Part shown: piece by piece, positions 21,637 to 59,156 of the stretch
Numbering within the stretch: the stretch's first letter is position 1
Layout of the letters: each line of letters opens with the position of its first letter
NCBI GenBank assembly: GCA_028715115.1
Contig: JAQUSN010000001.1
Coordinates: forward strand, 67,314 to 131,313
Length of the DNA: 64,000 bases
Direction: 5' to 3'
Source of the DNA: Patescibacteria group bacterium
GTDB lineage: Bacteria > Patescibacteriota > Patescibacteriia > UBA2591 > UBA4787
The notes under the pieces: model-generated
Told to the model about the DNA's origin: nothing
The model's input: only the letters and a program-made list of their open reading frames with translations
The model's database searches: none
Program-made: the position numbers and the translations under genes

Positions 21637-21637
21637 A

Positions 21638-33816: not shown

Positions 33817-35430
33817 CTATAAAGGACAGCAGGTTATAGATACTGTCATCTCTAAACCGCCGCCGCCGCCACTATCAAGAGAAACTCCTGTCACCACATG
33901 ACCTGCTGGACAAGAGGCCAATGGCGACTCAGGCGTTGAGCTAACTACTACACAAGGAGTTAATGAATTGTTTATAGTTGTTAATTCGCCATTAACTGTT
34001 AAATCTCCATTTATGGTAGTATCACCATTGGCATCAACATATATGTCATTAATTGAACCAGTACGACGAATCAGGAAATTATCAGTTGAATTATCCATGC
34101 CAACGTACCATTTTTCCGTAGATTGACGATCCATACGCACACCAGTATAAAGTTTAGTGGCATTATTTTGATTAAGCCTAACCATGGCCGTGCCAGTAGC
34201 GGCAGAATTTTTAATATCTAGCTCATAACCCGGTGACTCTTCCCCAATACCAAGTTTAGTAGAGAAGAAACCATCCCCGAGAAAATAACCTGCCCAGCCA
34301 CCATTGGCAGCCTGAGATAGAATAGCCTTTCCGTTAGCAACATCTGTATAACCAAATACGCCTGCATAATCAGCTGAGTTCGTTTTACCATATACCCCGT
34401 ATTCATTGCTCTCGCCAAATATTGCGTAATTATCTCCTCCTAAAACAGTTAATTTATAGTTTGGACTTGTCGTCCCAATACCGACCTTGCCGCCGGTAAT
34501 GGTCATGTCGGTGTGACCCTGCCCGCCGAATTGGACAATCCGGTTAGCTGCACAAATTGCCGCACCATTAGCATCACCGCCGCCGCATAAATCGCCCCAG
34601 CCAAACTCGGCTTTTTCTGTCCCATTTTTTTGGAAACTGGCAAAACCGCCTACAGCCGCAGCGCTAGTGTTAACAAACAATGGACTTTCATTGGCTCCCG
34701 CGCCAGCCGTTGGCGTAAGTGTCAAAATTTGAGTAGTTTTATTATAAGTCATGCCGATCGCACCGCCAAAACTATCGCTATCGTTAAATTGTATTTGGGT
34801 ATTGCTACCGCCGGGCGTGGCGCTGCCGCCGGTTCCGCAACTTCCCCAGGTTAATGCACCGGCCCCATCATTCGTTAGACATTTAGTTCCACTAGCCTGA
34901 GAAGCCGGCCAAGTATAGTCTACATTGTTAATTCTGGTAATATCTCCGGCGGCCGTAACAAGAAATTTTTCGGGTGAAGCGCCCTGACTAATACCAATAG
35001 TGCCTCTTGTAGCCACGTTGCCACTAATATCAACCGAAAGGGCAGTAACGGCGCCTTCACAAATGTTGGCGCCGGTGCCGCTACAGTTTTCTAATTTCAG
35101 CAAAGTGCCAGTCGAGGTACTTTTGGCATTGCCGTAAATAACATTCTTACCACCACCGACAACCAAATCGCCCTTACCAACAATTAAACCAACATTGGCC
35201 CCTGAATTTCCCTCAATATTTAAACTTCCGGTTTTGGTCTGATAAGTTGAACCAATATTAACCGGAAAATCCGGATTGCCACCAGGTGGGGGCGCGGACG
35301 GTTCAGACCAGGCAGCTAGGCCCGGCAAAATGCCAATAAAAAATACTCCAACGAGGAGTATAATCAAAAAGCCAAATAAACCTTTTAAGGCAATTTGACC
35401 AGCTTGATTAGAAGAAGGTCTTCTTGTCAT
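33817..35430 (-). CDS. Gly/Thr/Asn-rich membrane-anchored fibre-like surface protein
   Basis: 537 aa; N-terminal TM helix; repetitive G-rich beta-helix/tail-fibre-like composition. Confidence 0.45.
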   Translation of the reverse strand: MTRRPSSNQAGQIALKGLFGFLIILLVGVFFIGILPGLAAWSEPSAPPPGGNPDFPVNIGSTYQTKTGSLNIEGNSGANVGLIVGKGDLVVGGGKNVIYGNAKSTSTGTLLKLENCSGTGANICEGAVTALSVDISGNVATRGTIGISQGASPEKFLVTAAGDITRINNVDYTWPASQASGTKCLTNDGAGALTWGSCGTGGSATPGGSNTQIQFNDSDSFGGAIGMTYNKTTQILTLTPTAGAGANESPLFVNTSAAAVGGFASFQKNGTEKAEFGWGDLCGGGDANGAAICAANRIVQFGGQGHTDMTITGGKVGIGTTSPNYKLTVLGGDNYAIFGESNEYGVYGKTNSADYAGVFGYTDVANGKAILSQAANGGWAGYFLGDGFFSTKLGIGEESPGYELDIKNSAATGTAMVRLNQNNATKLYTGVRMDRQSTEKWYVGMDNSTDNFLIRRTGSINDIYVDANGDTTINGDLTVNGELTTINNSLTPCVVVSSTPESPLASCPAGHVVTGVSLDSGGGGGLEMTVSITCCPL

Positions 35431-35568: not shown

Positions 35569-36312
35569 TTAACTGCCGCCAATGATTTGCCAGCGCGGAA
35601 AAATCATTTCTATCACTCGCTGAAAGGTTTTATAAGTACCAACCGACTTAGAAATCTTTAAACTCTTGGGCAAATTCCCAGTCCAATTAATAGTGTAATC
35701 CTGACTAATAACTCCACTATTATGCAAGGTTATTTTATAATATGAATTTAAATAATAGGGACTAGCCCCCACGCTAATCGGAACCACAAAAGACGAAGAA
35801 AAATCAGTATAAATAGTTTCTGTTTGAATCCCTGTGGCAATCACCTCTTCTAAAACAACCATATCACTCGAACAGCCGGCCGTAAGACAACTAACCGTTA
35901 GCCCAGCGCTAGGATAACCAACTCCACGAATATCTAAATAAAGAACAAATGATTTCCCGGGCGTCAAAGTAATATTACCGAACGATGCGTCTGCGTTTTC
36001 TACTGTAATATCATTGTTGCCTTCCACTAAATATTCCGCGCCATTGCTTAAAGTATCATTAGACCCGCAGCTATTCGGATCGCCAAGCTCGCAATGATTT
36101 TTTAAAACCTTATAAGCAGTTTCTTCGGCCCCGGACTCGGCGGCGTAAAGCGCCGCCTCTGAATTAGCCGAACCTTTGGTCATGCGCGCCTGGCGGATTA
36201 AAACATCTGCTACTAGGGCCGCCGAAGTTAAAAGCGAACTGATGACAAAAATTACCAACAAAATAGTAATGGAGCGCTTATCCCGTAACATATAACGTGA
36301 TATGTTTATCAT
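35569..36312 (-). CDS. PilX-like type IV pilus minor pilin
   Basis: 247 aa; N-terminus RDKRSITILLVIFVISSLLTSAALVA resembles the PilX N-terminal domain. Confidence 0.5.
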   Translation of the reverse strand: MINISRYMLRDKRSITILLVIFVISSLLTSAALVADVLIRQARMTKGSANSEAALYAAESGAEETAYKVLKNHCELGDPNSCGSNDTLSNGAEYLVEGNNDITVENADASFGNITLTPGKSFVLYLDIRGVGYPSAGLTVSCLTAGCSSDMVVLEEVIATGIQTETIYTDFSSSFVVPISVGASPYYLNSYYKITLHNSGVISQDYTINWTGNLPKSLKISKSVGTYKTFQRVIEMIFPRWQIIGGS

Positions 36313-36401
36313 AAAAATAAATTTTCAATTTCTAATAAATGATTTTATTTGTAAAAATTCGCGAATAATTTGTAGCTAATTCGCGTGATTGGGGCTGCTC
36401 T

Positions 36402-37007
36402 TTACCTTTTTTCTTCATAACGTTGACTAATTGTTTGTTGCAGTCGAACGTATTTTTGCCCAAAGCGCTCCTTTTGCGAACTTAGTTCCAAAACCGTTGT
36501 TACGCGCGGTACCGTAAAGGTGGTCGCTCCGGCCGTATACGGATTTGTAGTGGGGTCAATGTAAAAATTTAATTTTTCAACCTGAATATCAAGCATAGTT
36601 ACTGGTTCAAAGTTAACGGAAACACTATCACAGTAAGTTGCGTTACCGACGGATTCACAGCGCTCAGCGCGTTTACTGAATGCATTAAAATAATAAACCG
36701 TATAAATATAATTAGCCGAACTGCTATCGTTGTCATTTATTAAGGCCAAGGCGTCTTCTGGCGTATCAACTCCCGCGGTATAATAACTGTAATTTATGCG
36801 TTTATCGCGAATATCTTTGGTAATTTTGCTTAATAAATTTTGGCCATCCTGCTGAAGATCGGCGTTGACCGAAGATTTTTGTTGACTGCCGATGGCATAA
36901 ATATAAATTCCAGTCGCCACAACGATAATAATCGAAATTAAGCCGACAGAAACTATTAATTCTAATAAACTGAATCCTCGGCGATGTAATTTATTTTTAA
37001 GACTCAT
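36402..37007 (-). CDS. Prepilin-type N-terminal cleavage/methylation domain protein (pseudopilin)
   Basis: HRRG/FSLLELIVSVGLISIIIV class III leader plus hydrophobic helix. Confidence 0.6.
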   Translation of the reverse strand: MSLKNKLHRRGFSLLELIVSVGLISIIIVVATGIYIYAIGSQQKSSVNADLQQDGQNLLSKITKDIRDKRINYSYYTAGVDTPEDALALINDNDSSSANYIYTVYYFNAFSKRAERCESVGNATYCDSVSVNFEPVTMLDIQVEKLNFYIDPTTNPYTAGATTFTVPRVTTVLELSSQKERFGQKYVRLQQTISQRYEEKR

Positions 37008-37031
37008 TATAAATTGATAATTAAATTAATC

Positions 37032-37580
37032 TTAACGCCAATCGGTAAACTTCTTCTCTAGGGTCACTTGATGGGGACGATCTTTTTCCGTCCATTTAAC
37101 CAAAACCGTAGCCACTTTTTCACAATTAGCGCTGCAATTAGTGCCTAAGTCGTCGCCAGTGGCTATAGTCACAATCCGTCGAAAGAGGGTCTTGGTTAAA
37201 CCTACGGTGCAATTACCGCTATCATCGGCGTGTGAATAAATTTTAGTAGTCGGATCAAAACAAAGTTTGCAATTTAAACAACTATCTATATTGCCATTAG
37301 CCGCGGTGTCAAAATCAGTATCACCATAATCAAAAACATAAACCCCGTTATCTAAACCAAAAGACCAGGTCTGGCCTTCATTAAACCAGTTAGTTGATCT
37401 AACCGCTTGGCAAACCTCAACACCTTCTCGAGCTAAAGTAATCGCCTGAACCCATTCGGTGGTTTGTCCACCCAAAGACAATGTTGAAAGGGCTAAAGAC
37501 AAAATGCCAACCAACGCTATGATCACAATAGCGGTAGCCACAATAGTTTCAATTAAAGTTTGAGAAGATTTTCTCTCCAT
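37032..37580 (-). CDS. PilV-like minor pilin
   Basis: 182 aa; N-terminus QTLIETIVATAIVIIALVGIL is a PilV-type N-terminal helix. Confidence 0.5.
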   Translation of the reverse strand: MERKSSQTLIETIVATAIVIIALVGILSLALSTLSLGGQTTEWVQAITLAREGVEVCQAVRSTNWFNEGQTWSFGLDNGVYVFDYGDTDFDTAANGNIDSCLNCKLCFDPTTKIYSHADDSGNCTVGLTKTLFRRIVTIATGDDLGTNCSANCEKVATVLVKWTEKDRPHQVTLEKKFTDWR

Positions 37581-37600
37581 GAAAATATCTTAATAATATA

Positions 37601-38155
37601 CTAAGATTGCGAAGTAACAACGTCTATTCTGCCCTTGGAATTAATGCGTATATATAGGTAAGTTTGATTGCCGGAACTTTTAATGCTATAGAAAATGTTT
37701 GCTCCACTGGTCAAAGCGGCTCCATCGCAATAAACTTGTCCTTCCGGCCGAGTAAAAACCAAGTCTTTACAGCCGGCATTCTCGATAATTAAGCCCGGAG
37801 ACAAAGTATAATCCTCTATTGATTCATCACTTGCGCTCGCGTCCCATTTATAATTATTGGGCGCGCCTTGATCAATATAAAGCTTATAGGTCGTGCTATT
37901 ATTAGATGGCACATATATGCCATAGCCATAATTGGTTAAATTGCTCGTTTGTTTATAACCAGTCAAGGCCATACTTTGCGATCGCTTGATTACGCTGAGC
38001 ATCTCCTTGCTGTTGGTCAATAAATCGTCTTTTCTTTGACCCGTGCGATAGTTGACAATAGTCATGGCGCTTAAGACGCCTATAATAAAAACAACCACCA
38101 CTAATTCAATAATCGAAAATGCTTTTGATTTTTTTTTATTATTACCTTCCGCCAT
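37601..38155 (-). CDS. Prepilin-type pseudopilin (GspH/FimT-like)
   Basis: KKSKA/FSIIELVVVVFIIGVLSAM prepilin leader plus helix. Confidence 0.6.
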   Translation of the reverse strand: MAEGNNKKKSKAFSIIELVVVVFIIGVLSAMTIVNYRTGQRKDDLLTNSKEMLSVIKRSQSMALTGYKQTSNLTNYGYGIYVPSNNSTTYKLYIDQGAPNNYKWDASASDESIEDYTLSPGLIIENAGCKDLVFTRPEGQVYCDGAALTSGANIFYSIKSSGNQTYLYIRINSKGRIDVVTSQS

Positions 38156-38172
38156 CTACTTATTTTATCTAA

Positions 38173-38943
38173 TTATAAAAAAGTATGCAAATACCAACCT
38201 ATGATTTTTTGGCCAAAAAACATTGTCACCAAACTTCCAATAACCAAAAAGGGGCCCAAGGGAACTTGAGAGGCCCATTTTTTTTGACGAGTAAGAATTA
38301 GGGCTAGGCCTATTAAGCTGCCGATCAGATAAGAAGCTAAAATCGCCGCCAAAATGTTCGGCCATCCGAAATAAACGCCCAATAAAATCCCGATGCGAAA
38401 GTCTCCCAAGCCGATTCCTTTGCCACGGGTAATTAAATATTGGACGATAAAGAACAGGCCTGCCCCCAAGCCAGCTAAAACAATATTCAACCAGTATATT
38501 TTTAATAAAAATAAATTAATAAATAAAATAACAGCTGCGATCGGCATTAAAACAGTATCTTCTATAATATAAAACTTAAGATCGTAGACAAAAGTAAATA
38601 TTAGCGCAAAAATCATCAACCAGTCGCGCAGTAAATAAATTACCACATCGCTCGACCCCGAAGCCAATTGATGATAAGCGGCCGCTAAAAATAAAAAACC
38701 AGTAGCAAGCTCCACGAGTGGATATTGCCAGGAAATTTTTTGCCGACAAGAACGGCAGCGGCGTCGCAGTAAAAAAAAGCTTAAAACCGGAACATTATCA
38801 TACCAACTTATTTTTTTAGAACAACGAGGGCAAAACGACCTGCCTAAAATGCTTTTTTTATGATACAAACGATAAATGAGGCAGTTTAAAAAGCTCCCCA
38901 TTATCAACCCGATGACAAAAGAAAATACGAAAAGTAAAATCAT
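38173..38943 (-). CDS. pilD: Prepilin peptidase (A24 family)
   Basis: 256 aa; N-terminal CxxC...CxxC zinc motif (CPRCSKKISWYDNVPV...CRSCRQKI) and 8 TM helices of PilD. Confidence 0.85.
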   Translation of the reverse strand: MILLFVFSFVIGLIMGSFLNCLIYRLYHKKSILGRSFCPRCSKKISWYDNVPVLSFFLLRRRCRSCRQKISWQYPLVELATGFLFLAAAYHQLASGSSDVVIYLLRDWLMIFALIFTFVYDLKFYIIEDTVLMPIAAVILFINLFLLKIYWLNIVLAGLGAGLFFIVQYLITRGKGIGLGDFRIGILLGVYFGWPNILAAILASYLIGSLIGLALILTRQKKWASQVPLGPFLVIGSLVTMFFGQKIIGWYLHTFL

Positions 38944-40295
38944 GATTCTATTTTAACATAATCCCCGAAAAAAAGAAGGGCTCCGTAAAAAATAGTCAAA
39001 GGCGCAATCGTTAAAAGATTTCTTTGGTCAATAACGCCAACCAATAAATAATAATTATTTGAATCGGTAAAAACATAAAGAGCTAAATAGAAAATCAAGC
39101 AGCCCAAAACGGAAAAAAATAAAAATGAATTTTCTCTATGCCAAAGAGATCGCCAATTAAAAATAATTAGCAAAATAAATATCAACCACCAAATGTTCCA
39201 ATTTGAAATGACAATAAGCCGATTAAATAAAATGCTTAAAGCGCCGAAGCTATGAATTAATTTGAACGAATTTTCGTTGTTTGCCCAGCTTAAATGATGG
39301 CTAAATTTAAAAATTAACCACGGCAAAACCAGAGCAATAAGTAAACCAGCGCTAATTAAATGTTTTACTCTGAATTTTTTCTTTACTAATGAATAAATCA
39401 AGGAAGAGACTAAAATAATAATCGATAGGGCCAATCCTTCATTTTTGGTCCAAGCCGCACTGGCAGCTAGAATTGCGCCTAAAATAAAATATCCCCTGTT
39501 TTCCTCCCGCCAGCCACGCCAAAAATAAATCGCAGTGGCTAAAACATAAAAAGATAAAATTAAATCTGCATAATCATGCCTGGCATGATAAACCACAAAC
39601 GGCATAGTCGCCAAAAAGAAAGTAAAAATCATGGCGCGAAAACGCGAAGCGGTGCGGCGCAAAGCGCTATAAAGAATAATTAATAATGATAAATAATAAA
39701 TGGGCAAAGTAAGTTTTATGGCCGGCTCAAACCAGCTCCCGACCAAAACAGATTGCCAATCCTGCCACAATGGCAGTTGTAAAGGATAGCCTAATAAATG
39801 GATACCCAAGAAATATGGATGGTCTTGGTTAAGAATAATTTTATTTTGGCTAAAAAATATTTTTGCTTTTAATGACCAGGTGGCCAAAGCGTCATACTGA
39901 ATAATCGGCCGCCACCAGGCTGAGAAAAAAACAAAAATTATTGTTGCGGCGATAATAATAAATAAAATTATTGTTAAAATCTTGGTTAACAACTTAATTT
40001 TTTGTTCATTTGGCTTATGGTTAATGTGAGAATCAACAGCAACTCGGCGTAAAATTATAAAAACAATACTTAAGAATAATAGTGCCAATAAAATATTTAC
40101 CGACAAGGTTAGCAATAGACCCAGCCAAGAAAAAATAAAAATTAACATAGTTATAAAAAACACGCCCAAGGCAAAACTTAAAGCAAAAATTTCGCTTAAG
40201 AAAAATTTTGTTTGGCGAGCGATTAAAGTTATTAAAACCAAACCAAAAATTATCGGCGCTAAAATCCCTAAAATAGTTGAAGCTATTATTATCAT
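38940..40295 (-). CDS. Polytopic membrane protein, possibly GT-C-type glycosyltransferase
   Basis: 451 aa, 10 or more TM helices; ATGA overlap with pilD; adjacent to the GT2 and methyltransferase cluster. Confidence 0.35.
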   Translation of the reverse strand: MIIIASTILGILAPIIFGLVLITLIARQTKFFLSEIFALSFALGVFFITMLIFIFSWLGLLLTLSVNILLALLFLSIVFIILRRVAVDSHINHKPNEQKIKLLTKILTIILFIIIAATIIFVFFSAWWRPIIQYDALATWSLKAKIFFSQNKIILNQDHPYFLGIHLLGYPLQLPLWQDWQSVLVGSWFEPAIKLTLPIYYLSLLIILYSALRRTASRFRAMIFTFFLATMPFVVYHARHDYADLILSFYVLATAIYFWRGWREENRGYFILGAILAASAAWTKNEGLALSIIILVSSLIYSLVKKKFRVKHLISAGLLIALVLPWLIFKFSHHLSWANNENSFKLIHSFGALSILFNRLIVISNWNIWWLIFILLIIFNWRSLWHRENSFLFFSVLGCLIFYLALYVFTDSNNYYLLVGVIDQRNLLTIAPLTIFYGALLFFGDYVKIES

Positions 40296-41413
40296 TTTCT
40301 ATAATAGATTAATTGATTAGGCGCGACGACTATTTTTTCAAAGCCATCATAGTTTGCCTCTAGAGCAAAATAAGACAAAACATATTTGGCCAGATTGATA
40401 TCGCCGACAACTTGGTATTGATCTATTAAATCATAAATTAAAACAATGCGGCGATAATCAGTCGATGGCGGCAGGAAAATCTTACTGCCCAAGGGTATTT
40501 TTTCTTTAACCGCCCTCAAATAACTATTTAAGTCCGTACCTGAATTGTCCTGTAAAAAACTGTTGATTAAAATTGCCCTTTTTTGATCGTTTGATTTGGA
40601 AGACAAATTATAATCATCTTTAAATTCTAAAAACCAAGCGCGCAAAAAATAAATTCCGCTACAAAACCAAGCAACTAAAACGACGATTAAAAATATTTTT
40701 TGCCAATGGGCGCGCAAAGCGCTATCGCGACAATTAAAAAGATACAAAACTATCAAAATAATTGCGGTGAAAATTAAAATATAATATGAAAGAGGTGTAG
40801 CGTAAACAAAAATCGGCGGCAGCATATTAATCCAAGATAATCCTTCGGCTGGCAAAGAAAAATATTCCTGCCATAGGGTTTTTAAAACTAAACCAGGCGT
40901 GCCTGAAAGTAAAGAAAAAGAGTCAACTTCAATTTGTGATGGATTAAACTTTAAATATAGGCGGTCGACCATGCCATACCAGGCGTCAAAATTAGATAAA
41001 TTAAAATAATAATCGGTGAATTGATTATTCTTTTTATTAAAAATAAAATTATTTAACGGCTTGGCTCCTCCTTGTGGATTTAAAAAATTTACCGATAATT
41101 GAGAAAAATCCGCGGTGGTTTTTAATCTTAGAGCTAAAAAATGGTATTTATCAGCGGCAAAATTTAATTTTTCCTGCGGAGGTAAATAAAATATTAGTCC
41201 GGCATTCTCTTTGATAATCAAGGGATCGCCTGCAATGTTTTTTTGGCAATTAAGACCACGGTCGTTCACAAGACAACGTGGTTTGTTTTCATTATTTTGC
41301 GCTTCAAAAGCAATAACTGATATTGATTTCAAAATAAAACTTCCGGCCAAGAAAACAATGACCAGGCCTAAAAGAATTATCGTTTTTTTATTTTGCCGAA
41401 GCCACTTGAGCAT
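40292..41413 (-). CDS. Membrane protein of unknown function
   Basis: 373 aa; N-terminal TM, large extracytoplasmic domain, 3-4 TM helices in the middle. Confidence 0.35.
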   Translation of the reverse strand: MLKWLRQNKKTIILLGLVIVFLAGSFILKSISVIAFEAQNNENKPRCLVNDRGLNCQKNIAGDPLIIKENAGLIFYLPPQEKLNFAADKYHFLALRLKTTADFSQLSVNFLNPQGGAKPLNNFIFNKKNNQFTDYYFNLSNFDAWYGMVDRLYLKFNPSQIEVDSFSLLSGTPGLVLKTLWQEYFSLPAEGLSWINMLPPIFVYATPLSYYILIFTAIILIVLYLFNCRDSALRAHWQKIFLIVVLVAWFCSGIYFLRAWFLEFKDDYNLSSKSNDQKRAILINSFLQDNSGTDLNSYLRAVKEKIPLGSKIFLPPSTDYRRIVLIYDLIDQYQVVGDINLAKYVLSYFALEANYDGFEKIVVAPNQLIYYRK

Positions 41414-41416
41414 AAA

Positions 41417-42106
41417 TTAACTATACCTATATTTAGCAATGGCCCAAATAGCCCTTAGGCCATCGGTATATTTTATCTTTTTGCCGTCTTTATAAAGGCG
41501 CGGATGATAAGAAATTGGTATTTCTAAAATTTTATGTTTTTTCTTTAAAAAATCAGCTGTTAGTTCTATCTCTAAATCAAACCCGTTTGACTCTAATTCT
41601 AAACTTTGGATCAAATTTCTTTTAAAAACTTTATAACAGGTCCAGGGGTCGTTGATTTTATGCCCATAAAAAAGATAAAAAAGAAAAGACAAAAAACGAT
41701 TGCCTAAATAAAATATTTTATAAATCGGGCGATGTTTGGTTAAAAAACGCGAACCATAAACCACCTCAGCCCTGCCCTCTGAAATGGGCCTAACAAGATC
41801 GGGCAACTCTTGCGGATTATATTCTAAATCAGCATCTTGGATGGCAATAATATCGCCGGTTGCTTCTTTAAATCCTCGACGCAAAGCAAGCCCCTTGCCC
41901 TGATTAACCTCTTGAAAAAATATTTTATAATTATTTTGCTCTTCTTGGGCAACGTTTTTTAAAATTTCTCTGGTTCCATCAGTAGAGGCATCGTCAATAA
42001 TTATTATTTCCGAATCAATATCAAATTTAACAGCTTTAATTCTTTCAAGTAAATCTAAAATCGTTTTTCTCTCGTTATAAACCGGGATAATGATTGATAA
42101 TTTCAT
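41417..42106 (-). CDS. GT2 glycosyltransferase, polyprenyl-phosphate sugar synthase (DPM1-like)
   Basis: 229 aa; MKLSIIIPVYNE...IIIIDDASTDGT...DADL motifs. Confidence 0.8.
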   Translation of the reverse strand: MKLSIIIPVYNERKTILDLLERIKAVKFDIDSEIIIIDDASTDGTREILKNVAQEEQNNYKIFFQEVNQGKGLALRRGFKEATGDIIAIQDADLEYNPQELPDLVRPISEGRAEVVYGSRFLTKHRPIYKIFYLGNRFLSFLFYLFYGHKINDPWTCYKVFKRNLIQSLELESNGFDLEIELTADFLKKKHKILEIPISYHPRLYKDGKKIKYTDGLRAIWAIAKYRYS

Positions 42107-42109
42107 ATT

Positions 42110-42655
42110 TTATTTTTGCGCCACGATAAAATTATTAAAACCAAACTGAAATTGTTGTGCCTTAACAATTTTAAAACCTAATTTTATTAATAAATCTTTA
42201 AGTTCGCTTAAATTAAAATAGCGGAGATGGCTGCCAATTTCTTCTTGGCTCAAAATATTAAACTTAAAGGCTAAAAATTCTAAAAGATTTTTTGATCTGG
42301 GAGCTGGAGTGGTAATAATAATCCGACCACTATCTTTCAAAGGTCGATAACAGTCCTTTAAGATATCTTCCGGGTATTCAACATGCTCTAGAACCGCCAA
42401 AAGAGTAATGACGTCAATAGAGTTAGACGGCAGGTTAATTTCTTTGGCTAAATTACTGTGGCAAATTTCTAAATTGTCTTTTTTGAGATTGTCGATTTTT
42501 TTATCAAATCCGTAACCTTTCGAAATTGAATTCTTAATAGACTTTAAAAGAAAGGCTGATTGGCCGCAACCAATATCACAAACTACTGCACCATTTTTAA
42601 TATATTTTTTAATCTTATTAACCCTTAGTCTTCTTAAGACTTCTTCTAAGAACAT
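42110..42655 (-). CDS. Class I SAM-dependent methyltransferase
   Basis: 181 aa; VVCDIGCGQSAFLLK motif I. Confidence 0.7.
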   Translation of the reverse strand: MFLEEVLRRLRVNKIKKYIKNGAVVCDIGCGQSAFLLKSIKNSISKGYGFDKKIDNLKKDNLEICHSNLAKEINLPSNSIDVITLLAVLEHVEYPEDILKDCYRPLKDSGRIIITTPAPRSKNLLEFLAFKFNILSQEEIGSHLRYFNLSELKDLLIKLGFKIVKAQQFQFGFNNFIVAQK

Positions 42656-43428
42656 AAAAGATAAATAAAGCGTATTACTTTAAGTAAATTTGACCTTATG
42701 GCTCCGTAATGTTTTTGCCAATAATAGTTTTGCGACTGGTAATAAAGGGTTTTGCGTTTTTTATCGCTAGTCAGGCTTTGGCCACCCAGGTGAATTATTT
42801 TTGTAGTAATCAAAACAATAATTTTATAGCCCAAATTTTTAACTCGGCGGCACAAATCGCGATCCTCAAAGTACATGAAAAAATTCTCATCAAAACCGTT
42901 GATTTGTTCAAAAATTTTTCGGCGGATTGCCAGGGCCGCGCCACTAACCCAATCAGTGAATAAATAATTATTTTTCTTGATTAATTGCGTTTGATTGCCT
43001 CGATATATTTTATCGATCATTTTGTCTCGGCCAAACGAATAGGGCTGAAGTTGACCGTTGTCCAAAATCAATTGCGGCGATATAACTCCTACCTCTTTGT
43101 TATTTTTAAAGCATTCGCTGATTTTTTCAAATATGTCTTCAATAAAAATCGTGTCTGGATTTAAAAAAAACAAAACATCTCCTTTGGCCTGCTTGGCTGC
43201 CATATTATTGGCGGCGGCAAAACCAAGATTTTGTTTTAATAATATTAAATTAATAAAAGGATACTTTTCTTGATAACCAAAAAGGGCGGATTCTTGAGAA
43301 TTGTTGTCAACAATAATAACCTCTGTTTCAATCCGGCTAATGAATTTGATCAACGAATTAAGGCATTGATCCAAAAATTTCCAGCTATTATAATTGACGA
43401 TGATAATAGATAATTTCATTGATCGCAA
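42646..43428 (-). CDS. GT2 glycosyltransferase
   Basis: 260 aa; MKLSIIIVNYNSWKFL...VIIVDNNS...FLNPD motifs. Confidence 0.75.
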   Translation of the reverse strand: MRSMKLSIIIVNYNSWKFLDQCLNSLIKFISRIETEVIIVDNNSQESALFGYQEKYPFINLILLKQNLGFAAANNMAAKQAKGDVLFFLNPDTIFIEDIFEKISECFKNNKEVGVISPQLILDNGQLQPYSFGRDKMIDKIYRGNQTQLIKKNNYLFTDWVSGAALAIRRKIFEQINGFDENFFMYFEDRDLCRRVKNLGYKIIVLITTKIIHLGGQSLTSDKKRKTLYYQSQNYYWQKHYGAIRSNLLKVIRFIYLLCS

Positions 43429-43473
43429 GTTTTATATATTCTAACCAAGAACGATTACCGAGAGAGCGTAAAT

Positions 43474-44832
43474 TCAATGTATAAAATTTTTTCTAATTTT
43501 ATTTTTTATAAAATTTATTGTCTCTTTCGGCCGTCTAAAAAAATATTTTACTAAGAGATAAAAGCGCCTTTTTTTGCGTTCCTTCAAAAATAGATCGTAT
43601 AAACATTTTAATTCTTCTCGGTCTAATTTTTCTGACAAAATTAGATAATTTTTATAATTATTTGAAAAATCAATACTTAATTTATTCCAATCCATATCAT
43701 TAGAAACCAATCGCCTCCCTAAGGCATATTCCCAAATAGGCGTACCTGGCAAAGGCAGAAGAGCATAAACATCAAAAGAATCTAGTTTACTCTTCTTAAT
43801 AAAATTTAAAGTATCCATGATTTCTTCTCTCGTCTCGTCCGGCGAACCTATAATAAACGAAGCACTAACCTGCAAATTATATTTTTTCAAATAATTAATA
43901 GCATCCATATTGTCTTTGACTGTTACCAAATCGCCCTTAAGAAATTTAAATATTCTCTCGTTCCCAGACTCAAGCCCCATAGAGACTATGTCAACCCCCA
44001 TCTCTTTAAGCAATCTGGCAGACTCATTATTAACCAGATTGGCACGCACTGAAACGGTAAATTTTATCTTTTTATAAAATTTCTGTTTTTTTATTAATTC
44101 AACTATCTTTTTTAATCTTTTTTTGTCGGCGATAAAAAGATCATCGCAAAACGTTATTCTGGGAGAATTATAACGATCGACAAGATACCCTATCTCCTTG
44201 ATCACATATTCTGCCGAATTAAACCTGGTCTTATCCCAAAATCTCGAAGAAAAACAAAACCTACACTTATAGGGACATCCCCTTGAAGTAAACATATAAA
44301 CATTGTCTCCCTTTTTGATGTTAAAAAGATTTCTGTCGGGAAAGGGAATTAAGTCTAAATTTTCTATAAGAGGACGACTCTCTGTTTGAACAAGTTTGCC
44401 CTCATCATGGAACACCACCCCTTTAATCATCCTAAGATTTTCCTTAGTAAATTTTTTATCAATAAATAGCTTTATAATCTCGCCAAAGGTTTGCTCTCCT
44501 TCGCCGATAATTCCCACGTCCATATTACTGTCCAGGCTTGAGGGAATGGCGGTAATGTGGCTTTTCCCAATAATTACGGCTATATTTTTATCTTTACAAA
44601 ACCTAGCTATCTGCTTCGCCCTGTTGAAATTTTGCGAAACGCAAGAAAGGCCCACCATATCCGGACCAAAAGAAACAATCTTCTCTTCGACTTGGCTGTT
44701 AACAACCTCAACTTCGATCTCTTTTCTGACATCTTTGGGTAAAAAAGAAATTAGATAACCAAGCCCCAAAGAATCATATTTAGTTTGAATTTTATCCTGA
44801 TTGTCGATGACGTCCACTAAAATAAGTTTCAT
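43474..44832 (-). CDS. B12-binding radical SAM protein (class B radical SAM methyltransferase-like)
   Basis: 452 aa; N-terminal cobalamin-binding Rossmann segment, then the radical SAM CxxxCxxC motif (SRGCPYKCRFC). Confidence 0.8.
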   Translation of the reverse strand: MKLILVDVIDNQDKIQTKYDSLGLGYLISFLPKDVRKEIEVEVVNSQVEEKIVSFGPDMVGLSCVSQNFNRAKQIARFCKDKNIAVIIGKSHITAIPSSLDSNMDVGIIGEGEQTFGEIIKLFIDKKFTKENLRMIKGVVFHDEGKLVQTESRPLIENLDLIPFPDRNLFNIKKGDNVYMFTSRGCPYKCRFCFSSRFWDKTRFNSAEYVIKEIGYLVDRYNSPRITFCDDLFIADKKRLKKIVELIKKQKFYKKIKFTVSVRANLVNNESARLLKEMGVDIVSMGLESGNERIFKFLKGDLVTVKDNMDAINYLKKYNLQVSASFIIGSPDETREEIMDTLNFIKKSKLDSFDVYALLPLPGTPIWEYALGRRLVSNDMDWNKLSIDFSNNYKNYLILSEKLDREELKCLYDLFLKERKKRRFYLLVKYFFRRPKETINFIKNKIRKNFIH

Positions 44833-44840
44833 AAAAATTT

Positions 44841-45533
44841 TTACTTAAAAAAACCGTCCGAACAAGTTTGTTCTACGTTTTTAATACACAAGATCTGAAA
44901 GGCTATTTCCGGCCAATAATATGCCATGAGTTGCGTCAACGAAGCCGCTTTTTTCCAAAAAACAGCTGGCCAAAATTTAATATCTCCCTTTTCTCTCCTT
45001 AAAAACTTTAACCCGCTTATGCCAAAAACTAAATATCCCATATTTCTCATTTCTTTAACACTGTAGCCCGACAGATGAACCTGCCCGGTATTGCCATCAA
45101 ATGTTTCTTGCTTCAAAAATCCATTTGGAGTAAAGATTATAACTCTTTTTTTTGCTATTCTTTCCGCCTCTTTTATCAATTTCAGACCATCGGTCTTATC
45201 TAAATGCTCAATTAAATCTAGCGCCACAACACAATCAAAAGATTTATCCTTGATTTTTCGACAAGCGTCAAAAACATTAGAAATCAAATAGTCTGAGTGA
45301 ATTCTTGAATTTTTACTTCGCTCAATATAAGGGACAAAATTATCAATGCCCAAGCTATATTCTAATTTGTCAGAAAATAATTTAATGGGCGATTGTTCTC
45401 CGCATCCTAAATCCAAAACAGTTTTGCAGGAATCTAAAATCTCTTTTTTTAATTTAAATTGGTATCTGAAATCATTAAAATAATCGCTAATTTTTTTGAA
45501 AGGATTCATAAATAAATATTTTACTATATTCAA
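44841..45533 (-). CDS. Class I SAM-dependent methyltransferase
   Basis: 230 aa; VLDLGCGEQSP motif I. Confidence 0.65.
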   Translation of the reverse strand: MNIVKYLFMNPFKKISDYFNDFRYQFKLKKEILDSCKTVLDLGCGEQSPIKLFSDKLEYSLGIDNFVPYIERSKNSRIHSDYLISNVFDACRKIKDKSFDCVVALDLIEHLDKTDGLKLIKEAERIAKKRVIIFTPNGFLKQETFDGNTGQVHLSGYSVKEMRNMGYLVFGISGLKFLRREKGDIKFWPAVFWKKAASLTQLMAYYWPEIAFQILCIKNVEQTCSDGFFK

Positions 45534-45548
45534 GACCTCTTCATCTAT

Positions 45549-47861
45549 TTACTTTAATCGCTCTAAAAATATTTTTATGGTCTGCGCATCTGGTTTTAAT
45601 TTTAGGGCCTGCTGGGCATAATCACGAGCCATTTGAAGACTTCCTTTTTCATAATACAATAAAGCTACGGCCCACGGCCAATTAAAATCGCCTGGATTTA
45701 AAACCATTCCGTGTAAATTATAACCGATGGCTGAATTTAAATCGTGACGTAAATAATAAATATCGGCGATTTTTTTATAAATATTATATTTTCGCGGATT
45801 TAACTTCAAAATTTCCTGATAAACAATCAAGGCTTGATCATAGTTGCGTTGATCCATATAAATTTCAGCCAGTTGCTCTTTTACTAGACCCTCTTCATTA
45901 GTAATCTCTAATCGCTGGGTTGGCCCAAGTTGCGGCGTAGCTAAATCAGGATAAAGACTAAGGGCCGTATTGCACTTATCTGTTGCCTCATCTAAACGCT
46001 TTTCATAAAACTTTAATCGGCACCAATCATAATATAAAACCGCCATCTTGGGTGAAAGCGAAATTAAGCGGCCAAGATCTTGCTCGGCAACCTGAAAATC
46101 GTCTAACTTTTGACTGTCTTCGGCTTTTAGGGCGCGCAATCTGGCCCGATAAGCCTGAGCTTCGAAGCTGATTTGATTGGCGGGAATGTCATCAATAATT
46201 TGAATAGCTAAACTAAATAGTTTTATTCGCTCATCTTTATTTTTTTCCGGCACCGAATAGGTAAGATCTAATAGATCCCTGGCAAAACTTTCTCGGTAAT
46301 AAGATTCTTCTGGTTGTCGATTTATAGCTTTATAATAATAATCAATGCCTTGGGAAATTTTTTGACTGCGAATAGAGACAATGGCCTGTTTGTAATACCA
46401 ATCAGCCATAATCATTTTGGCGCTGAATTGCCAAATAAAAAATATAGTAATGAGAAATAGGATTATAGAAATAACAATCCTCTTAAAATCTATTTTTATA
46501 TTTTGTAAATAATAATCTTCACTAAAATCTTTATCCAGGTTTATAGTGACAGCATAAATCAGCGCCAAATAAAGCCAAAAATATAAGCCGGTTTGCACGA
46601 CGTGAAAGCCAAACTGTAAAGCCACTAGATAGCCTATCAATCCCAATAAAACAGCGCCGATTAAGGCATAAGCGCGAGGCCCGTCTTTAAGTTTATTTTT
46701 AAGAAACCCAAGAACTTGCCAAAAAAAAGTAATAAGTAAATAAAAATATGCTATTAAACCCAAAAGTCCGGCTATTAATAATGTATCCAAAATATCATTA
46801 TGAGCCCTATCGGGATAACTATTAATAGCCTCATAAATCGCATTATCAGGTTGGTAGTATTTGACGGCATGTAAACCAAAAATTTCTTGACCGTAGCCCA
46901 AGAGAGGCTTTTGGCTAATTTGGTCTATGGCTGCCTGCCAGGCAAGTAAACGAGTGTGGCCGGTAATCGCCCTTTGCAAAAAAACAAAGCTTACTAAACG
47001 GTCTAAAATTGGTGGTTCTAAGGCTTTTTGAGGATGCCAGGGTAAACTAGCGGCCCATGACCATAGCAGTAAAACTGTCGCAATTATTAAAAACCATAAA
47101 ATAGTTTTTCTTTTGTTGCCCCGAGACCATATCCAAAGCAACAAAAAACAAAAAAGCTCTGCCACTAGGCCCATCCAAGCGGCTCGTGATAAGGTTAATA
47201 ACAAAGAAATAAATATACTAACAATCAAAAAACCTATGGGTAAACGCGCCGAAGCGGATTTGAAATAATAAAAACAAAAAAACACTAACGGCAGAACCAG
47301 CAGCAGCCATTGGCCCAAAAAAATTGGTTGGCCTAAAGAAGAAAATATTCTATAACCTATCGTCGCGTTATTAAGACCCCAATCAATAATATCTAATCCT
47401 AAAATCTGCAAAAATCCATACAAACAAACCAGGCCGGCAGAAATTAAAATTACTAATAAAATTCTTTTAATTTGTGTTGATCTCCTTATCTCGGAAATAA
47501 ATACTAGAAAAAACAAAAAATAATGTATCCAGGTGATTAATCCCATCTTTCTGGCATAGCTGCCCAGAAAACTTAATCGCGGCGATTGCGAAAAAATTGT
47601 CGCCAGAGATAAGGCGAACAAAAACAAAAAGGCCGGTAAGATTAATTTTAAAGATAACCTTGACGGGCGCCAACCGAAGATAACCTTTAATAACCAAAAC
47701 AACGTTGCTAGCTCAATTAAAACTTGGATTAAAAAAAGCTGGTTTGTTTCCCAGCAGCGATATGTTAAACACTGGAAAAAGACCGGGCTTAAGCCAATGA
47801 TTAACAACAAACAGACTTCTATAGCAATATTTAAATATTTTATTAATCTCATAGGTGGCAA
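45549..47861 (-). CDS. O-antigen ligase/Wzy_C-family polytopic membrane protein with C-terminal TPR repeats; candidate pilin O-oligosaccharyltransferase (TfpO/PglL-like)
   Basis: 770 aa; about 12 TM helices with a Wzy_C-like loop in the N-terminal two-thirds, then TPR repeats at the C-terminus; located immediately downstream of the major pilin gene. Confidence 0.6.
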   Translation of the reverse strand: MPPMRLIKYLNIAIEVCLLLIIGLSPVFFQCLTYRCWETNQLFLIQVLIELATLFWLLKVIFGWRPSRLSLKLILPAFLFLFALSLATIFSQSPRLSFLGSYARKMGLITWIHYFLFFLVFISEIRRSTQIKRILLVILISAGLVCLYGFLQILGLDIIDWGLNNATIGYRIFSSLGQPIFLGQWLLLVLPLVFFCFYYFKSASARLPIGFLIVSIFISLLLTLSRAAWMGLVAELFCFLLLWIWSRGNKRKTILWFLIIATVLLLWSWAASLPWHPQKALEPPILDRLVSFVFLQRAITGHTRLLAWQAAIDQISQKPLLGYGQEIFGLHAVKYYQPDNAIYEAINSYPDRAHNDILDTLLIAGLLGLIAYFYLLITFFWQVLGFLKNKLKDGPRAYALIGAVLLGLIGYLVALQFGFHVVQTGLYFWLYLALIYAVTINLDKDFSEDYYLQNIKIDFKRIVISIILFLITIFFIWQFSAKMIMADWYYKQAIVSIRSQKISQGIDYYYKAINRQPEESYYRESFARDLLDLTYSVPEKNKDERIKLFSLAIQIIDDIPANQISFEAQAYRARLRALKAEDSQKLDDFQVAEQDLGRLISLSPKMAVLYYDWCRLKFYEKRLDEATDKCNTALSLYPDLATPQLGPTQRLEITNEEGLVKEQLAEIYMDQRNYDQALIVYQEILKLNPRKYNIYKKIADIYYLRHDLNSAIGYNLHGMVLNPGDFNWPWAVALLYYEKGSLQMARDYAQQALKLKPDAQTIKIFLERLK

Positions 47862-47973
47862 TTGGATTGACTAATTTTATCATGAACCGTTAAATAAATC
47901 AATCTTATTTTATAAACATAAAAACAAATCTGCCTCTTTCTGGGGCAGACTTGTTTAAACTTTCGCAATTCAA

Positions 47974-48448
47974 TTACAGGCCAGCTGGACTCGCTGTACG
48001 AGTACCAGCGGTTAAACCGCCGGTTGCCGAACCGAGACAATACTTAATAGTGTAACTGGCTCCGCTATTGTCATAACTATAAGTATAAACAGCACCAACG
48101 CCGGTTGAGGGACAGCTGCCATCGTTAACCGGAGTAGGGTTTGACGGAGCAACGGCCATATAAGTAGTGCCCGTGCAAGGCGCGGCAGACCAACCAGAAA
48201 TGCTACTTAGGCATTTGCCTTCAATGGTTCCTGTATTAGTACCACCAGTAATGTTGGGGTAGGCATTATTGTCCAAAAAATACATTTCTAAGGCAGTTTG
48301 GACTTGTCTAACATCCGAAACACGTCGAGCGTCGCGCGCTTTAGCTCGAGCATTGCTTAGGGCGATAACCGCCATCGCGGCTAATAGACCAATAATAGCT
48401 ACAACCACCAATAATTCGATAAGTGTGAAACCTTTTTTGTTGTGTCGC
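47974..48448 (-). CDS. pilA: Type IV pilin (major pilin candidate)
   Basis: MRHNKKG/FTLIELLVVVAIIGLLAAMAVIALSNARAKARDARR is a canonical class III prepilin leader with the conserved Glu5, and the length is short. The track ORF begins at an upstream ATG (48468). Confidence 0.75.
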
Positions 48449-48623
48449 ATATATTTTCTAAATTTCAAATAAAACGACCTTTAGCTAAAGATAAACATAC
48501 TATATCATATCTATTATTTTTGGGTAGTAGTTATCCACAGAATAAGATTTAACGGTCTCGCCTTGCTAAAAAATAAAATTTTTGCTAACATAAAAACAAA
48601 TTTAGAAATATTAAATCTTCTTC

Positions 48624-50090
48624 ATGAAAGATTATCAGGTAAATCTTATCGACGGCATCAGACCGATAGATAAGATACAACTGGGCTACACAAAACCAAC
48701 TAAGCCGGGCGGCCGCAGCAAGGTTGGTCGTTTTTTGTTTCGTATTTCAGTAATAGTAGTAATCATTGTCGTCTTCTTTTATACTAATATTAATTTTTCA
48801 TCTCAAGGGCTAATCGGCGGCGTTGGCCGTTTGTCGTTTTGGGAAGGTATGGCCCGCCTAGCCTTAGGTAAAGATAAAATCTTAAAAGGAGAGCTGGGCG
48901 ATCGTATTAATATTTTAATTTTAGGCATAGGCGGAGCTGATCATGAAGGGGCCAACCTAACTGATACTATTATCTTAATGAGCATTAAGCCCTCAACTAA
49001 CGAAGTGGTTCTATTTTCTATACCGCGCGATCTGTACGTGCCAACCAAAGAATATGGTTGGCAAAAAATAAACGCCATAAATAGCCTGGCTTCGGCAAAA
49101 GCCAAAGACGGATCAGCCGTAACCAGTAAGATTATCGGCAATCTTTTTGGGACTACGGTTAATTATTGGGTTAAAATAGACTTCGCGGCTTTTAAAGATT
49201 TTGTTGACTGGATGGATGGCGTAGAGATTAATGTCGAAAGATCTTTTATAGACACGCAATATCCGGCCGCCAATTACGAATTCAAAGTAGTAAGTTTTAG
49301 AACCGGCCAGCAACATATGGATGGAACCACGGCCCTACAGTATGCCCGCTCCAGACATGGCAATAATGGCGAGGGCAGCGATTTTGCCCGAATGAAACGA
49401 CAACAAAAATTGTTGTTAGCCATGAAAGAAAAAATGCAACAAAAAAACTATATCACTTCGGCTACCAAACTTTGGGAGGCTTATAATATTTTTAATCGGC
49501 GCATCGCCACCAACCTGGATTTTTCTGAAATGATCAGGCTCGGCAAAATGATGACCAGCTTTACCGAAAATAAAATTAAAAATTATACTTTTGAAGAAGA
49601 ACCAACCGGCCCCCTGTATTCAGAAATCATTTCTACCGGCGCCTATGTGTTAAGACCTAAAGACGGTAATTTTAACCTATTGGCCGAACCAATAAAAAAT
49701 GCTTTTAAAAATAACGCCGCTTCTTTGCCGACTCAAGGCCAAACAAACAATGAAAATATTAACGAATCGCCAATAACCAATATCACAAATAATGAAACGA
49801 GTCCTGCCGGCGCCAAACCGCAAATAATTATTTTGAACGGCACGAAAATTACCGGCCTAGCCCAGCAAATAAAAGGGCAATTAGAAAAACTTGACTACCA
49901 AATAATTAGTATAGGCAATGCGAGCACACAAAATTATACCAAAACAATAATTTACACTGTTGGTTCAGAGACCAACAGATTAAACGAATTAAAAAACGTC
50001 TTACGGGCCGATGCCGAATCTCTGCCCAATGCACTTAAATATTTAGTCACGCCGAATATTAATTTTTTGATTATTTTAGGTACTAACTAA
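48624..50090 (+). CDS. LytR-CpsA-Psr (LCP) family cell-envelope polymer transferase
   Basis: 488 aa; N-terminal TM anchor; LCP core ...INILILGIGGADHEGANLTDTIILMS...FSIPRDLYV. Confidence 0.8.
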   Translation: MKDYQVNLIDGIRPIDKIQLGYTKPTKPGGRSKVGRFLFRISVIVVIIVVFFYTNINFSSQGLIGGVGRLSFWEGMARLALGKDKILKGELGDRINILILGIGGADHEGANLTDTIILMSIKPSTNEVVLFSIPRDLYVPTKEYGWQKINAINSLASAKAKDGSAVTSKIIGNLFGTTVNYWVKIDFAAFKDFVDWMDGVEINVERSFIDTQYPAANYEFKVVSFRTGQQHMDGTTALQYARSRHGNNGEGSDFARMKRQQKLLLAMKEKMQQKNYITSATKLWEAYNIFNRRIATNLDFSEMIRLGKMMTSFTENKIKNYTFEEEPTGPLYSEIISTGAYVLRPKDGNFNLLAEPIKNAFKNNAASLPTQGQTNNENINESPITNITNNETSPAGAKPQIIILNGTKITGLAQQIKGQLEKLDYQIISIGNASTQNYTKTIIYTVGSETNRLNELKNVLRADAESLPNALKYLVTPNINFLIILGTN

Positions 50091-58775: not shown

Positions 58776-59156
58776 TTAGGGGACTGGACTGACTGATCGG
58801 AAAATAATACTAAAGACAAAGTTAAGAATCGAATAACTGGCAAAAATCAAGGCCAGACCCAAGGCCGCCCAAACCATAGTATCGCGCCCACTTCTGATTT
58901 TATCTTCACTGCCGCCGGAGGTCATCCATTGAATACCACCCCAGATAAACATCACCAAGGCCAAAATTCCCAAAACATTTAAAACGCCGCGAATAATTCT
59001 GCCAATAATAAGCGATAAATCAGTCGTGCATAAAGGGTTGGGCAATTCCCCTGGACCAGCTGTACAACTAGCGGCCTCGGCGAAAACGGGAATGCCCGTC
59101 AAAGACAAAATGATAATTAAGCTAAATGATAAAACTATTTTTTGCCAATTCTTCAT
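58776..59156 (-). CDS. Small membrane protein, TrbC/VirB2-like (paralog 3)
   Basis: 126 aa; IGRIIRGVLNVLGILALVMFIWGGIQWMTSGGSEDKI core. Confidence 0.45.
   Translation of the reverse strand: MKNWQKIVLSFSLIIILSLTGIPVFAEAASCTAGPGELPNPLCTTDLSLIIGRIIRGVLNVLGILALVMFIWGGIQWMTSGGSEDKIRSGRDTMVWAALGLALIFASYSILNFVFSIIFRSVSPVP

Follow-up and report, generated by a model that had tools for sequence, protein, structure and literature searches.

On the minus strand of the 64,000-nt stretch of patescibacterial DNA analysed here (the window; GC 0.395), a gene cluster at positions 35569-48468 places the gene of a membrane protein with an O-antigen ligase (Wzy_C) domain and tetratricopeptide repeats (TPR) between the gene of a major type IV pilin and that of the prepilin peptidase PilD. 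On balance we consider it likely, if not by much, that this protein (in the following, the enzyme) is a TPR-bearing O-oligosaccharyltransferase (O-OTase) similar to TfpO and WsfB, that it is paired with PilD in a pilin-maturation module and that it O-glycosylates the pilin.

The open reading frames (ORFs) of the window were listed and then scanned with Pfam and NCBIfam. Read from 48468 down to 35569, the cluster consists of the prepilin, the Wzy_C-TPR enzyme, a Methyltransf_11 protein, a B12-binding radical S-adenosylmethionine (SAM) protein, a family 2 glycosyltransferase (GT2), a Methyltransf_23 protein, a GT2 of the polyprenyl-phosphate-(Pol-P-)sugar synthase type, two membrane proteins of 373 and 451 aa, PilD and four minor pilins; thus, every gene that a preliminary description of this DNA had named was found on the strand and at the positions given there. 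The same description had counted three SAM methyltransferases, but the cluster has two class-I methyltransferases in addition to the B12/radical SAM enzyme, and the next-nearest methyltransferase, a TehB-like protein (27857-28495, plus strand), lies outside. From the enzyme gene through the last minor pilin gene the intergenic gaps are between -4 and 89 bp. The same locus is present in three public metagenome assemblies, and the gene arrangement is far beyond chance, as dozens of divergent genomes have these genes in the same order.

The enzyme is encoded by the ORF 45549-47861 (minus strand) and has 767 amino acids when counted from the ATG at 47852, slightly fewer than the 770 of the preliminary description, which was right about the content of Wzy_C and TPR (TPR_2 2.6e-10). 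Comparison with Wzy_C and PglL models, which that description had proposed, finds Wzy_C (65.7 bits with a gathering cut-off of 31.7, E 5e-18) and thus membership in the PF04932 superfamily, but not the PglL_A domain of PglL; Wzy_C is matched by 20 of 20 family members tested with Pfam. The Wzy_C core (residues 1-440, 46533-47852) is a WaaL-like bundle of twelve helices according to Pfam, profile match and an AlphaFold2 (AF2) model. Six residues (R223, R285, R301, D348, R349 and H351) are invariant in an alignment of 23 homologues with 29-77% identity, and the motif H351-N-x9-G362-x-x-G365 fits the pattern H-[NSQ]-x9-G-x-x-[GTY] of the ligase/O-OTase type. A profile of the full-length protein retrieved only TPR proteins from the PDB and the N-terminal domain was then used alone: its sole solved relative is the O-antigen ligase WaaL of Cupriavidus metallidurans (7TPG, E 4e-12). 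In the profile alignment to 7TPG, from which the WaaL residue numbers are taken, R223 (47184-47186), R301 (46950-46952) and H351 (46800-46802) align to R191, R265 and H313, residues that we take to be catalytic from mutagenesis of WaaL and O-OTases. For TfpO and TfpM, the conserved His is essential (PMC9829042). The best NCBIfam match of the enzyme is IctB, an uncharacterised family; we rejected its label 'bicarbonate transporter' as an uninformative name, the score being 66.8 bits and the cut-off 366 bits. The membrane-domain profile shows how large the family is, with over 10,000 clusters (at 50% identity) matched at E ≤ 1e-30; most of the best 150 matches have a length of 650-800 aa.

The AF2 model of the 767-aa protein (pLDDT 86, pTM 0.82) has the twelve-helix core, a thirteenth transmembrane (TM) helix (residues 456-477) and, to the C-terminus, an all-helical TPR solenoid of about 290 aa (residues 478-767; helix and solenoid 45549-46487); the conserved residues are borne by a long outside loop (residues 269-352). 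In Foldseek searches, the membrane part matched best to 7TPG (TMt 0.65) and the solenoid to OGT, SPINDLY (SPY) and consensus TPRs (CTPR). The TPR domain is predicted to be extracytoplasmic, because the thirteenth helix follows the core, provided that the core has the topology of WaaL with both ends inside. The same location is suggested by relatives with a split form, in which a Wzy_C protein of about 470 aa is always paired with an adjacent TPR gene of about 315 aa, confirmed by independent gene calls: at their N-termini these separately encoded TPR proteins have a basic stretch and one hydrophobic helix, that is, a signal anchor. A Wzy_C core with either a C-terminal TPR domain or a separate TPR partner is also the architecture of the WsfB type, WsfB being known here by its description.

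A scan with one genome per species yielded 181 confirmed relatives, and 80 loci were examined with up to 10 kb on each side; their ORFs were labelled by BLAST against the window proteins and against pilus, Sec and Fts proteins from the loci themselves. PilD is encoded downstream on the same strand in 52 of the 80 loci and a pilin directly upstream in 47; many of the other loci are truncated contigs. Three genomic backgrounds can be distinguished. The first (30 loci) has the order PilB, response regulator, PilT, PilC, pilin(s), enzyme, PilD and runs into FtsA-FtsZ in six cases, the second (19 loci) reads SecD, SecF, enzyme, PilD, FtsA, FtsZ, NrdR/D/G, and the third, to which the window belongs (13 loci), has a divergent LCP gene followed by pilin(s), enzyme, PilD and minor pilins. 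Searches with tblastn identified no PilB, PilT, PilC, SecDF or FtsAZ in the window: the pilus motor genes are located elsewhere in this genome. The pairing of enzyme and PilD is constant even where the pilin genes have moved away, which suggests that the two form a maturation module. In a neighbour-joining tree of the membrane domain, the 11 loci that lack both pilin and PilD group in one nested clade, which we read as a paralogue; among the remaining 69 loci, a link to pilin and/or PilD is seen in 68, and the exception is a contig without flanks. When the search was reversed, starting from four pilin homologues on long contigs, three gave pilin, Wzy_C (+TPR) and PilD and one (L088) gave pilin and PilD without Wzy_C. 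The preliminary description had named orthology to an enzyme of a separate capsule or teichoic locus as a reason to abandon its proposal; across the 80 loci the orthologues are never found in such loci and almost always lie between pilin and PilD.

Two further observations concern these neighbourhoods. In eight loci of the putative paralogue (L011, L012, L021, L027, L031, L034, L037 and L062) the gene past it encodes a conserved two-TM protein of some 170 aa with LTDRLNRWLKI at its C-terminus, which points to a different partner or substrate. The divergent LCP gene next to the cluster of the window (48624-50090) was considered as a link to a wall-polymer ligase and rejected: LCP adjacency is restricted to the window's clade (13 loci), in which the gene travels with Der and Pth.

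The major prepilin (47974-48450, minus strand, in an ORF that extends to 48468) has 158 aa, four Cys and a Glu at mature position 5. In gene calls it begins at the ATG at 48450 and has the leader MRHNKKG|FTLIE, and the sequence MRHNKKG|FTLIELLVVVAIIGLL (N_methyl, E 1.6e-10) is an N-terminus of the GspG/PilA type. Its AF2 model (pLDDT 92) is a lollipop with an N-terminal helix (residues 10-61) and a beta sheet, for which Foldseek listed EpsG, PAK pilin and PilE, all of them weak matches. With more than 4,500 matches, the best 120 of which have 50-87% identity, this pilin family is unusually well conserved. Past the last Cys the family has the tail Y-C-L-G-x3-G-x-[LIV]-x-A-G-x-H-x-A-[T/S]-P-x-G-[I/L], with 0-8 residues beyond it. 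The columns of its distal part are 94-96% conserved in 70 homologues (A in 67, T in 56 plus S in 10, P in 67 and G in 67), and in the genome loci the pilin beside the enzyme has T or S at the hydroxyl position, apart from Y in four loci and V and N in one locus each. Only pilins of this A-[T/S]-P-x-G type adjoin the enzyme; a second type, ending in IRGW, is always distal. After the conserved Ser/Thr come Pro and another 3-11 residues. The window pilin ends with TASPAGL, and the Ser of its tail A153-S154-P155-A156-G157-L158 (47977-47994) is the candidate O-glycan acceptor. PglL acceptor sites are rich in Ala and Pro, and the tail Ser/Thr, with its Ala and Pro neighbours and its place close to the C-terminus, is similar to sites at which known pilin O-OTases act. 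The acceptor of TfpO and TfpM is the C-terminus of the pilin (PMC9829042); they modify its very last residue, whereas the Ser/Thr candidate lies upstream of the end and the window pilin ends in Leu.

A DNA element was also seen behind pilin genes. Many loci of the PilB/T/C background have, right past the stop codon of the enzyme-adjacent pilin, an element of about 30 nt, AAATCTTTAAAAGGGTCCTATTAAGGGTTTAT, that forms a small hairpin and is followed by a strong GC-rich terminator-like hairpin (L017 9852-9925, with equivalents in L019, L022, L023, L024, L029 and L033 and variants in L010, L020, L026, L030, L032 and L039). The element is kept at the DNA level although the pilins are only about 55-60% identical; the window does not have it.

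The interval between enzyme and PilD is a hypervariable glycan island rich in methyltransferases. Relatives have between zero and nine genes in this interval, and the 82 genes found there include 25 GT2, 22 class-I methyltransferases, six GT1/GT4 and six radical SAM proteins, with fewer FkbM methyltransferases, GT8, GT9 and IS200 transposase genes. In the window, the island falls into two parts. The part beside the enzyme, a variable cassette, encodes four proteins on the minus strand: the class-I SAM methyltransferase with Methyltransf_11 domain (44841-45533; no orthologue in L090 and L091), a class B B12-binding radical SAM enzyme (43474-44832; B12-binding 3e-12, Radical_SAM 9e-26), a soluble GT2 (42646-43428; Glycos_transf_2 1.5e-21) and the class-I SAM methyltransferase with Methyltransf_23 domain (42110-42655). 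By its domains the B12/radical SAM enzyme is a putative C-methyltransferase; it has the motif CPYKCRFC (CxxxCxxC) at residue 186 and 26% identity to its counterpart in L091.

The part beside PilD is a triad of genes (38940-42106, minus strand). The first encodes the Pol-P-sugar synthase (41417-42106, 229 aa; AglJ 1e-38, ArnC 2e-21), a GT2 of the DPMS/ArnC/GtrB type with 59% identity to the gene in L091: in the PDB it matches the dolichyl-phosphate mannose synthase (DPMS) of P. furiosus (5MLZ, 3e-24) as well as ArnC and GtrB, but it lacks a TM anchor and the C-terminal membrane helices of these enzymes. The second gene (40292-41413) encodes the 373-aa membrane protein with three predicted TM helices, which has no Pfam or NCBIfam match and 38-43% identity to the genes at the same position in L090 and L091. 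The 451-aa protein encoded by the third (38940-40295; about ten TM helices, 48% identity in L090 and L091) had been described as a membrane protein that is possibly GT-C-like, and this finds some support: it is probably a GT-C-type glycosyltransferase like those of family 39 (GT39/PMT), with PMT_2 just below threshold (25.0 bits, cut-off 26.1), the NCBI name 'glycosyltransferase family 39 protein', distant homologues that carry PF02366/PF13231 and a conserved triad with the Pol-P-sugar synthase around it; it has no sequence match in the PDB.

L090 and L091 are the closest relatives with genomic context (pilin 61-65% and enzyme 45% identical), and both flanks of the cluster are kept in them. 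They also keep the triad beside PilD, with 26-59% identity, but the cassette beside the enzyme is replaced, in L090 by an FkbM methyltransferase, a GFO/IDH oxidoreductase, a hexapeptide acetyltransferase and a DegT aminotransferase and in L091 by two radical SAM genes and a GT4. The triad is also found in L016, L052, L067 and L080; BLAST identified homologues of the GT-C in four of the 80 loci. The seven island genes of the window have a GC content of 0.31-0.34, compared to 0.365 for the enzyme gene, 0.379 for PilD and 0.478 for the pilin gene. IS200/Y1 transposase genes lie within the island in L084 (10107-10748) and also make up two of the 82 in-between genes of relatives, consistent with a mobile cassette.

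These data can be combined to a pathway in which a lipid-linked oligosaccharide would be built in the cytoplasm, with the GT2, the two SAM methyltransferases and the B12/radical SAM enzyme acting as a strain-specific cassette that builds, tailors and methylates the glycan. After flipping, the Wzy_C core would bind the undecaprenyl-diphosphate-(Und-PP-)linked glycan on the outer face of the membrane via R223, R301 and H351. The thirteenth helix would put the TPR domain outside, where it may capture the membrane-anchored pilin, and the glycan would be transferred to a pilin hydroxyl, for which the tail Ser/Thr (here S154) is the best candidate. The clade-conserved triad would add a further sugar outside of the membrane, with either the glycan or the pilin as recipient, as Gtr does for O-antigen and Pmt for proteins. 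PilD would cut the leader and the minor pilins would prime assembly.

Among the known systems, TfpO (PilO) of Pseudomonas aeruginosa group I and TfpM of Moraxellaceae are closest in gene position: both are Wzy_C O-OTases encoded directly downstream of their own pilin gene (PMC9829042), and the enzyme gene starts 112 bp past the pilin gene. Judged by their descriptions, they are set apart from the enzyme, whose gene is linked to PilD no less than to the pilin and which belongs to a Patescibacterium without lipopolysaccharide. The architecture, in contrast, has its counterpart in predicted S-layer O-OTases: WsfB of Paenibacillus alvei has Wzy_C with C-terminal TPR, while WsaB of Geobacillus stearothermophilus pairs with the separate TPR protein WsaA (PMC2943079). 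The likeness to the enzyme family, in fused and split forms and in the Gram-positive-type envelope (PMC2943079), is one of published descriptions, and the targets are S-layer proteins, with genes in S-layer glycan clusters rather than in pilus operons. PglL of Neisseria and PglS of Acinetobacter are Wzy_C O-OTases that glycosylate pilins (PilE and ComP) from Und-PP-linked donors, and a C-terminal TPR motif of PglL has been remarked upon (PMC2943079), but they have 520-600 aa and internal sequons, and PglL is a general O-OTase. WaaL (7TPG) shares the fold and the three catalytic positions, but transfers to lipid A-core, which is not expected in this organism, and has neither thirteenth helix nor TPR. 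TfpW of P. aeruginosa group IV, whose gene lies downstream of pilA, is a glycosyltransferase specific for pilin and carries a large TPR domain in the periplasm, past its membrane core (bioRxiv 10.1101/2020.04.19.049825); this core is however GT-C and not Wzy_C, and the donor is decaprenyl-P-arabinofuranose. The triad finally resembles the Gtr systems (GtrA/B/type) and Pmt/Ppm1, in which a Pol-P-sugar synthase of family GT2 serves a GT-C that acts outside of the membrane, with the difference that the 373-aa middle protein is unlike the small flippase GtrA. We treat the enzyme as a probable variant of the pilin O-OTase theme and do not place it in a named family, because the Pfam test for PglL fails and because size and architecture do not agree with TfpO/TfpM. 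Filing it as PglL was rejected, as PglL_A and Wzy_C_2 were negative even at permissive thresholds.

The pilin O-OTase with a dedicated glycan cluster that the preliminary description put forward is supported in part: it gains considerably from the synteny with pilin and PilD, the catalytic residues, the predicted outward TPR domain and the methyltransferase-rich island, but a number of results weigh against it. PglL_A (PF15864) and Wzy_C_2 (PF11846) are absent from the window protein at E ≤ 1, and among 20 relatives scanned with Pfam, PglL_A was found in one (E 0.05) and Wzy_C_2 in none. TfpO and TfpM have 420-470 aa and no TPR, and the enzyme is about 300 residues longer. Protein family scans identified no priming phosphoglycosyltransferase and no Wzx or ABC flippase in the window, and neither a priming transferase nor a flippase is among the frequent families of the 82 island genes of relatives. 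The GT39-like GT-C and the Pol-P-sugar synthase together are a possible second, independent route of protein glycosylation. In the 19 loci of the SecDF background, the enzyme stays with PilD and has no pilin adjacent. S154 is at the end of the last beta strand in the AF2 model, and the conservation of the tail could therefore be structural rather than acceptor-related. In L088 (7001-8310) a pilin with the same tail (GVRTASPSGIQ) is directly followed by PilD, without a Wzy_C gene, within an operon PilM..PilB-PilT-PilC-pilin-PilD-minor pilin: either that genome has the enzyme at another place or the tail is conserved because of a structural role.

The gap between pilin and enzyme genes adds to this side. 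About 20 nt past the pilin stop codon there is a terminator-like hairpin (47918-47956, stem 47929-47949, minus strand) with an A-tract before and a T-tract after it, which folds with -18.7 kcal/mol (z -4.25; equalled by 0 of 200 shuffles), and beyond it lies a promoter-like TTGATT-17-TAAAAT with extended -10 TG (47874-47902, minus strand), recognised by its match to the consensus. The pilin gene is therefore probably its own, strongly expressed unit and the enzyme gene may rely on read-through or on a promoter of its own; co-transcription of the pilin with the glycosylation genes, on which the preliminary description had staked its proposal, is not supported in that form. A similar hairpin is however present past the proximal pilin in 35 of 47 related loci and is therefore part of a conserved design and not a sign of unrelated genes. 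A comparable arrangement has been described for pilA and downstream accessory genes.

Three other explanations have to be weighed against the pilin O-OTase. The enzyme could serve the envelope in general, be it as a broad O-OTase, as a ligase of secondary wall glycopolymers or as a Wzy-type polymerase, and its location would then reflect a string of envelope genes (SecDF, FtsAZ, LCP) and not a specificity for pilin. This agrees with the 19 loci that read SecD-SecF-Wzy-PilD-FtsA-FtsZ without an adjacent pilin, with the LCP gene that adjoins the cluster in the window's clade and with the best NCBIfam match being the uncharacterised IctB family; the only solved relative is WaaL, which is not an O-OTase, and PglL-type enzymes are general O-OTases (PMC9829042). 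However, the link to PilD and/or pilin holds in all three backgrounds while SecDF, FtsAZ and LCP are each specific to a context, the island genes of relatives include no accompanying Wzx, Wzz or export genes, and the sole clade without pilus context has a different conserved neighbour, the two-TM protein of about 170 aa. We therefore regard a general envelope function as rather unlikely; it also overlaps in part with the pilin O-OTase, as a general O-OTase would still glycosylate pilins. A catalytically dead protein that serves the pilus machine as a TPR scaffold is very improbable. TPR proteins are common scaffolds of pilus assembly, weak NCBIfam TPR matches of the enzyme include Tgl, GltE and PrsT, and the gene is conserved within pilus operons, but the Arg/Arg/His set and H-N-x9-G-x-x-G are invariant down to 29% identity and a glycan-synthesis island is always attached.

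The pilin might also be modified by the GT39/PMT-like GT-C (38940-40295) with Pol-P hexose from the DPMS-like GT2, comparable to actinobacterial Pmt/Ppm1 or, by analogy, to the pilin arabinosyltransferase TfpW, with the Wzy_C-TPR enzyme serving a different acceptor. For this speak the best matches of the GT2 (Dol-P-Man synthase, ArnC and GtrB), the GT39 annotation of the 451-aa protein with its homologues bearing PMT/PMT_2, the position of the triad directly upstream of PilD in the closest relatives, with further copies in L016, L052, L067 and L080, and the precedent of TfpW, a GT-C that glycosylates pilin (bioRxiv 10.1101/2020.04.19.049825). Yet homologues of the GT-C are present in only 4 of the 80 loci, while the Wzy_C-TPR gene universally accompanies pilin and PilD; PMT_2 scores under the Pfam cut-off, the 451-aa protein has no PDB sequence match, and decoration of the glycan in the manner of Gtr would fit the triad equally well. 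We think it improbable that the GT-C modifies the pilin in place of the enzyme, and the two routes are compatible.

The remaining genes of the cluster are those of the pilus. PilD (38173-38943, minus strand) is a prepilin peptidase/N-methyltransferase with both A24 domains (A24_N_bact 1e-31, Peptidase_A24 7e-11). The four minor pilins (37601-38155, 37032-37580, 36402-37007 and 35569-36312, minus strand; 184, 182, 201 and 247 aa) have an N-terminal hydrophobic helix and prepilin-like N-termini, and two of them match N_methyl in Pfam. They have syntenic orthologues with 41-57% identity in L090 and L091 and also in 12-18 other loci, as judged by BLAST, since a strict regular expression for prepilins missed many minor pilins. 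Directly past the minor pilins, on the same strand, the window encodes a protein of 537 aa that has a single N-terminal TM helix and matches no family (33817-35430) and a 1005-aa protein with two Laminin_G domains (30700-33717). Homologues with LamG domains adjoin PilD or minor pilin genes in five related loci (L008, L022, L030, L046 and L050), which hints at adhesins associated with the pilus. Far from the main pilin cluster, at 1814-3019 (minus strand), there is a prepilin-type protein of 401 aa with the N_methyl motif HSFTLVELL and a C-terminal Laminin_G_3/ConA-like lectin domain; it may be a pilin-borne adhesin.

Some features of the window lie outside of the pilus genes. Two adjacent proteins with nine TM helices each (562 and 406 aa) and no Pfam match, followed by a GT2 of 251 aa (53043-56642, plus strand), are a possible second module of membrane glycosylation. 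Two VirB2/TrbC-type 'T4SS_pilin' proteins, one of them fused to a peptidoglycan-binding domain (58776-59156 and 59185-59862, minus strand), adjoin PCMT and PAP2 genes and the gene of a 796-aa protein with three lamin-tail domains. Tandem full-length genes of cofactor-independent phosphoglycerate mutase (528 and 532 aa; 20050-23236, minus strand) are located beside enolase. The longest ORF of a class-I (Trp/Tyr-type) tRNA synthetase (11303-12418, plus strand) overlaps tRNA-Leu(CAG) (11315-11400) at its 5' end, and the true start codon is therefore downstream of 11400.

Of the ways in which Patescibacteria could find bacterial hosts and hold on to them, type IV pili are the best supported. In a study of the pili of Saccharibacteria, glycosylation of the pilin was only predicted and needs confirming (PMC11623550), and our literature search found no paper that ties an O-antigen-ligase-family gene to type IV pili in the Candidate Phyla Radiation/Patescibacteria. 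The present analysis offers a concrete handle, namely a defined enzyme family, a candidate acceptor motif and a hypervariable glycan island at a fixed genomic address. Tentatively, and going well beyond the window, pilin glycosylation may be a core step of type IV pilus biogenesis, rather than an accessory trait, across much of Patescibacteria, with Wzy_C-TPR and PilD as an obligatory module of two enzymes and the cassette-like, horizontally exchanged island as a main determinant of host recognition and phage evasion in these episymbionts; the island of the present strain would encode C- and O-methylated sugars. A TPR-guided O-OTase from a Gram-positive-type envelope could moreover extend the toolbox of glycoengineering. 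If the proposed function is true, the diversity of pilus glycans would be a factor in host range and phage resistance that varies from strain to strain, in a very large lineage most of which is uncultured.

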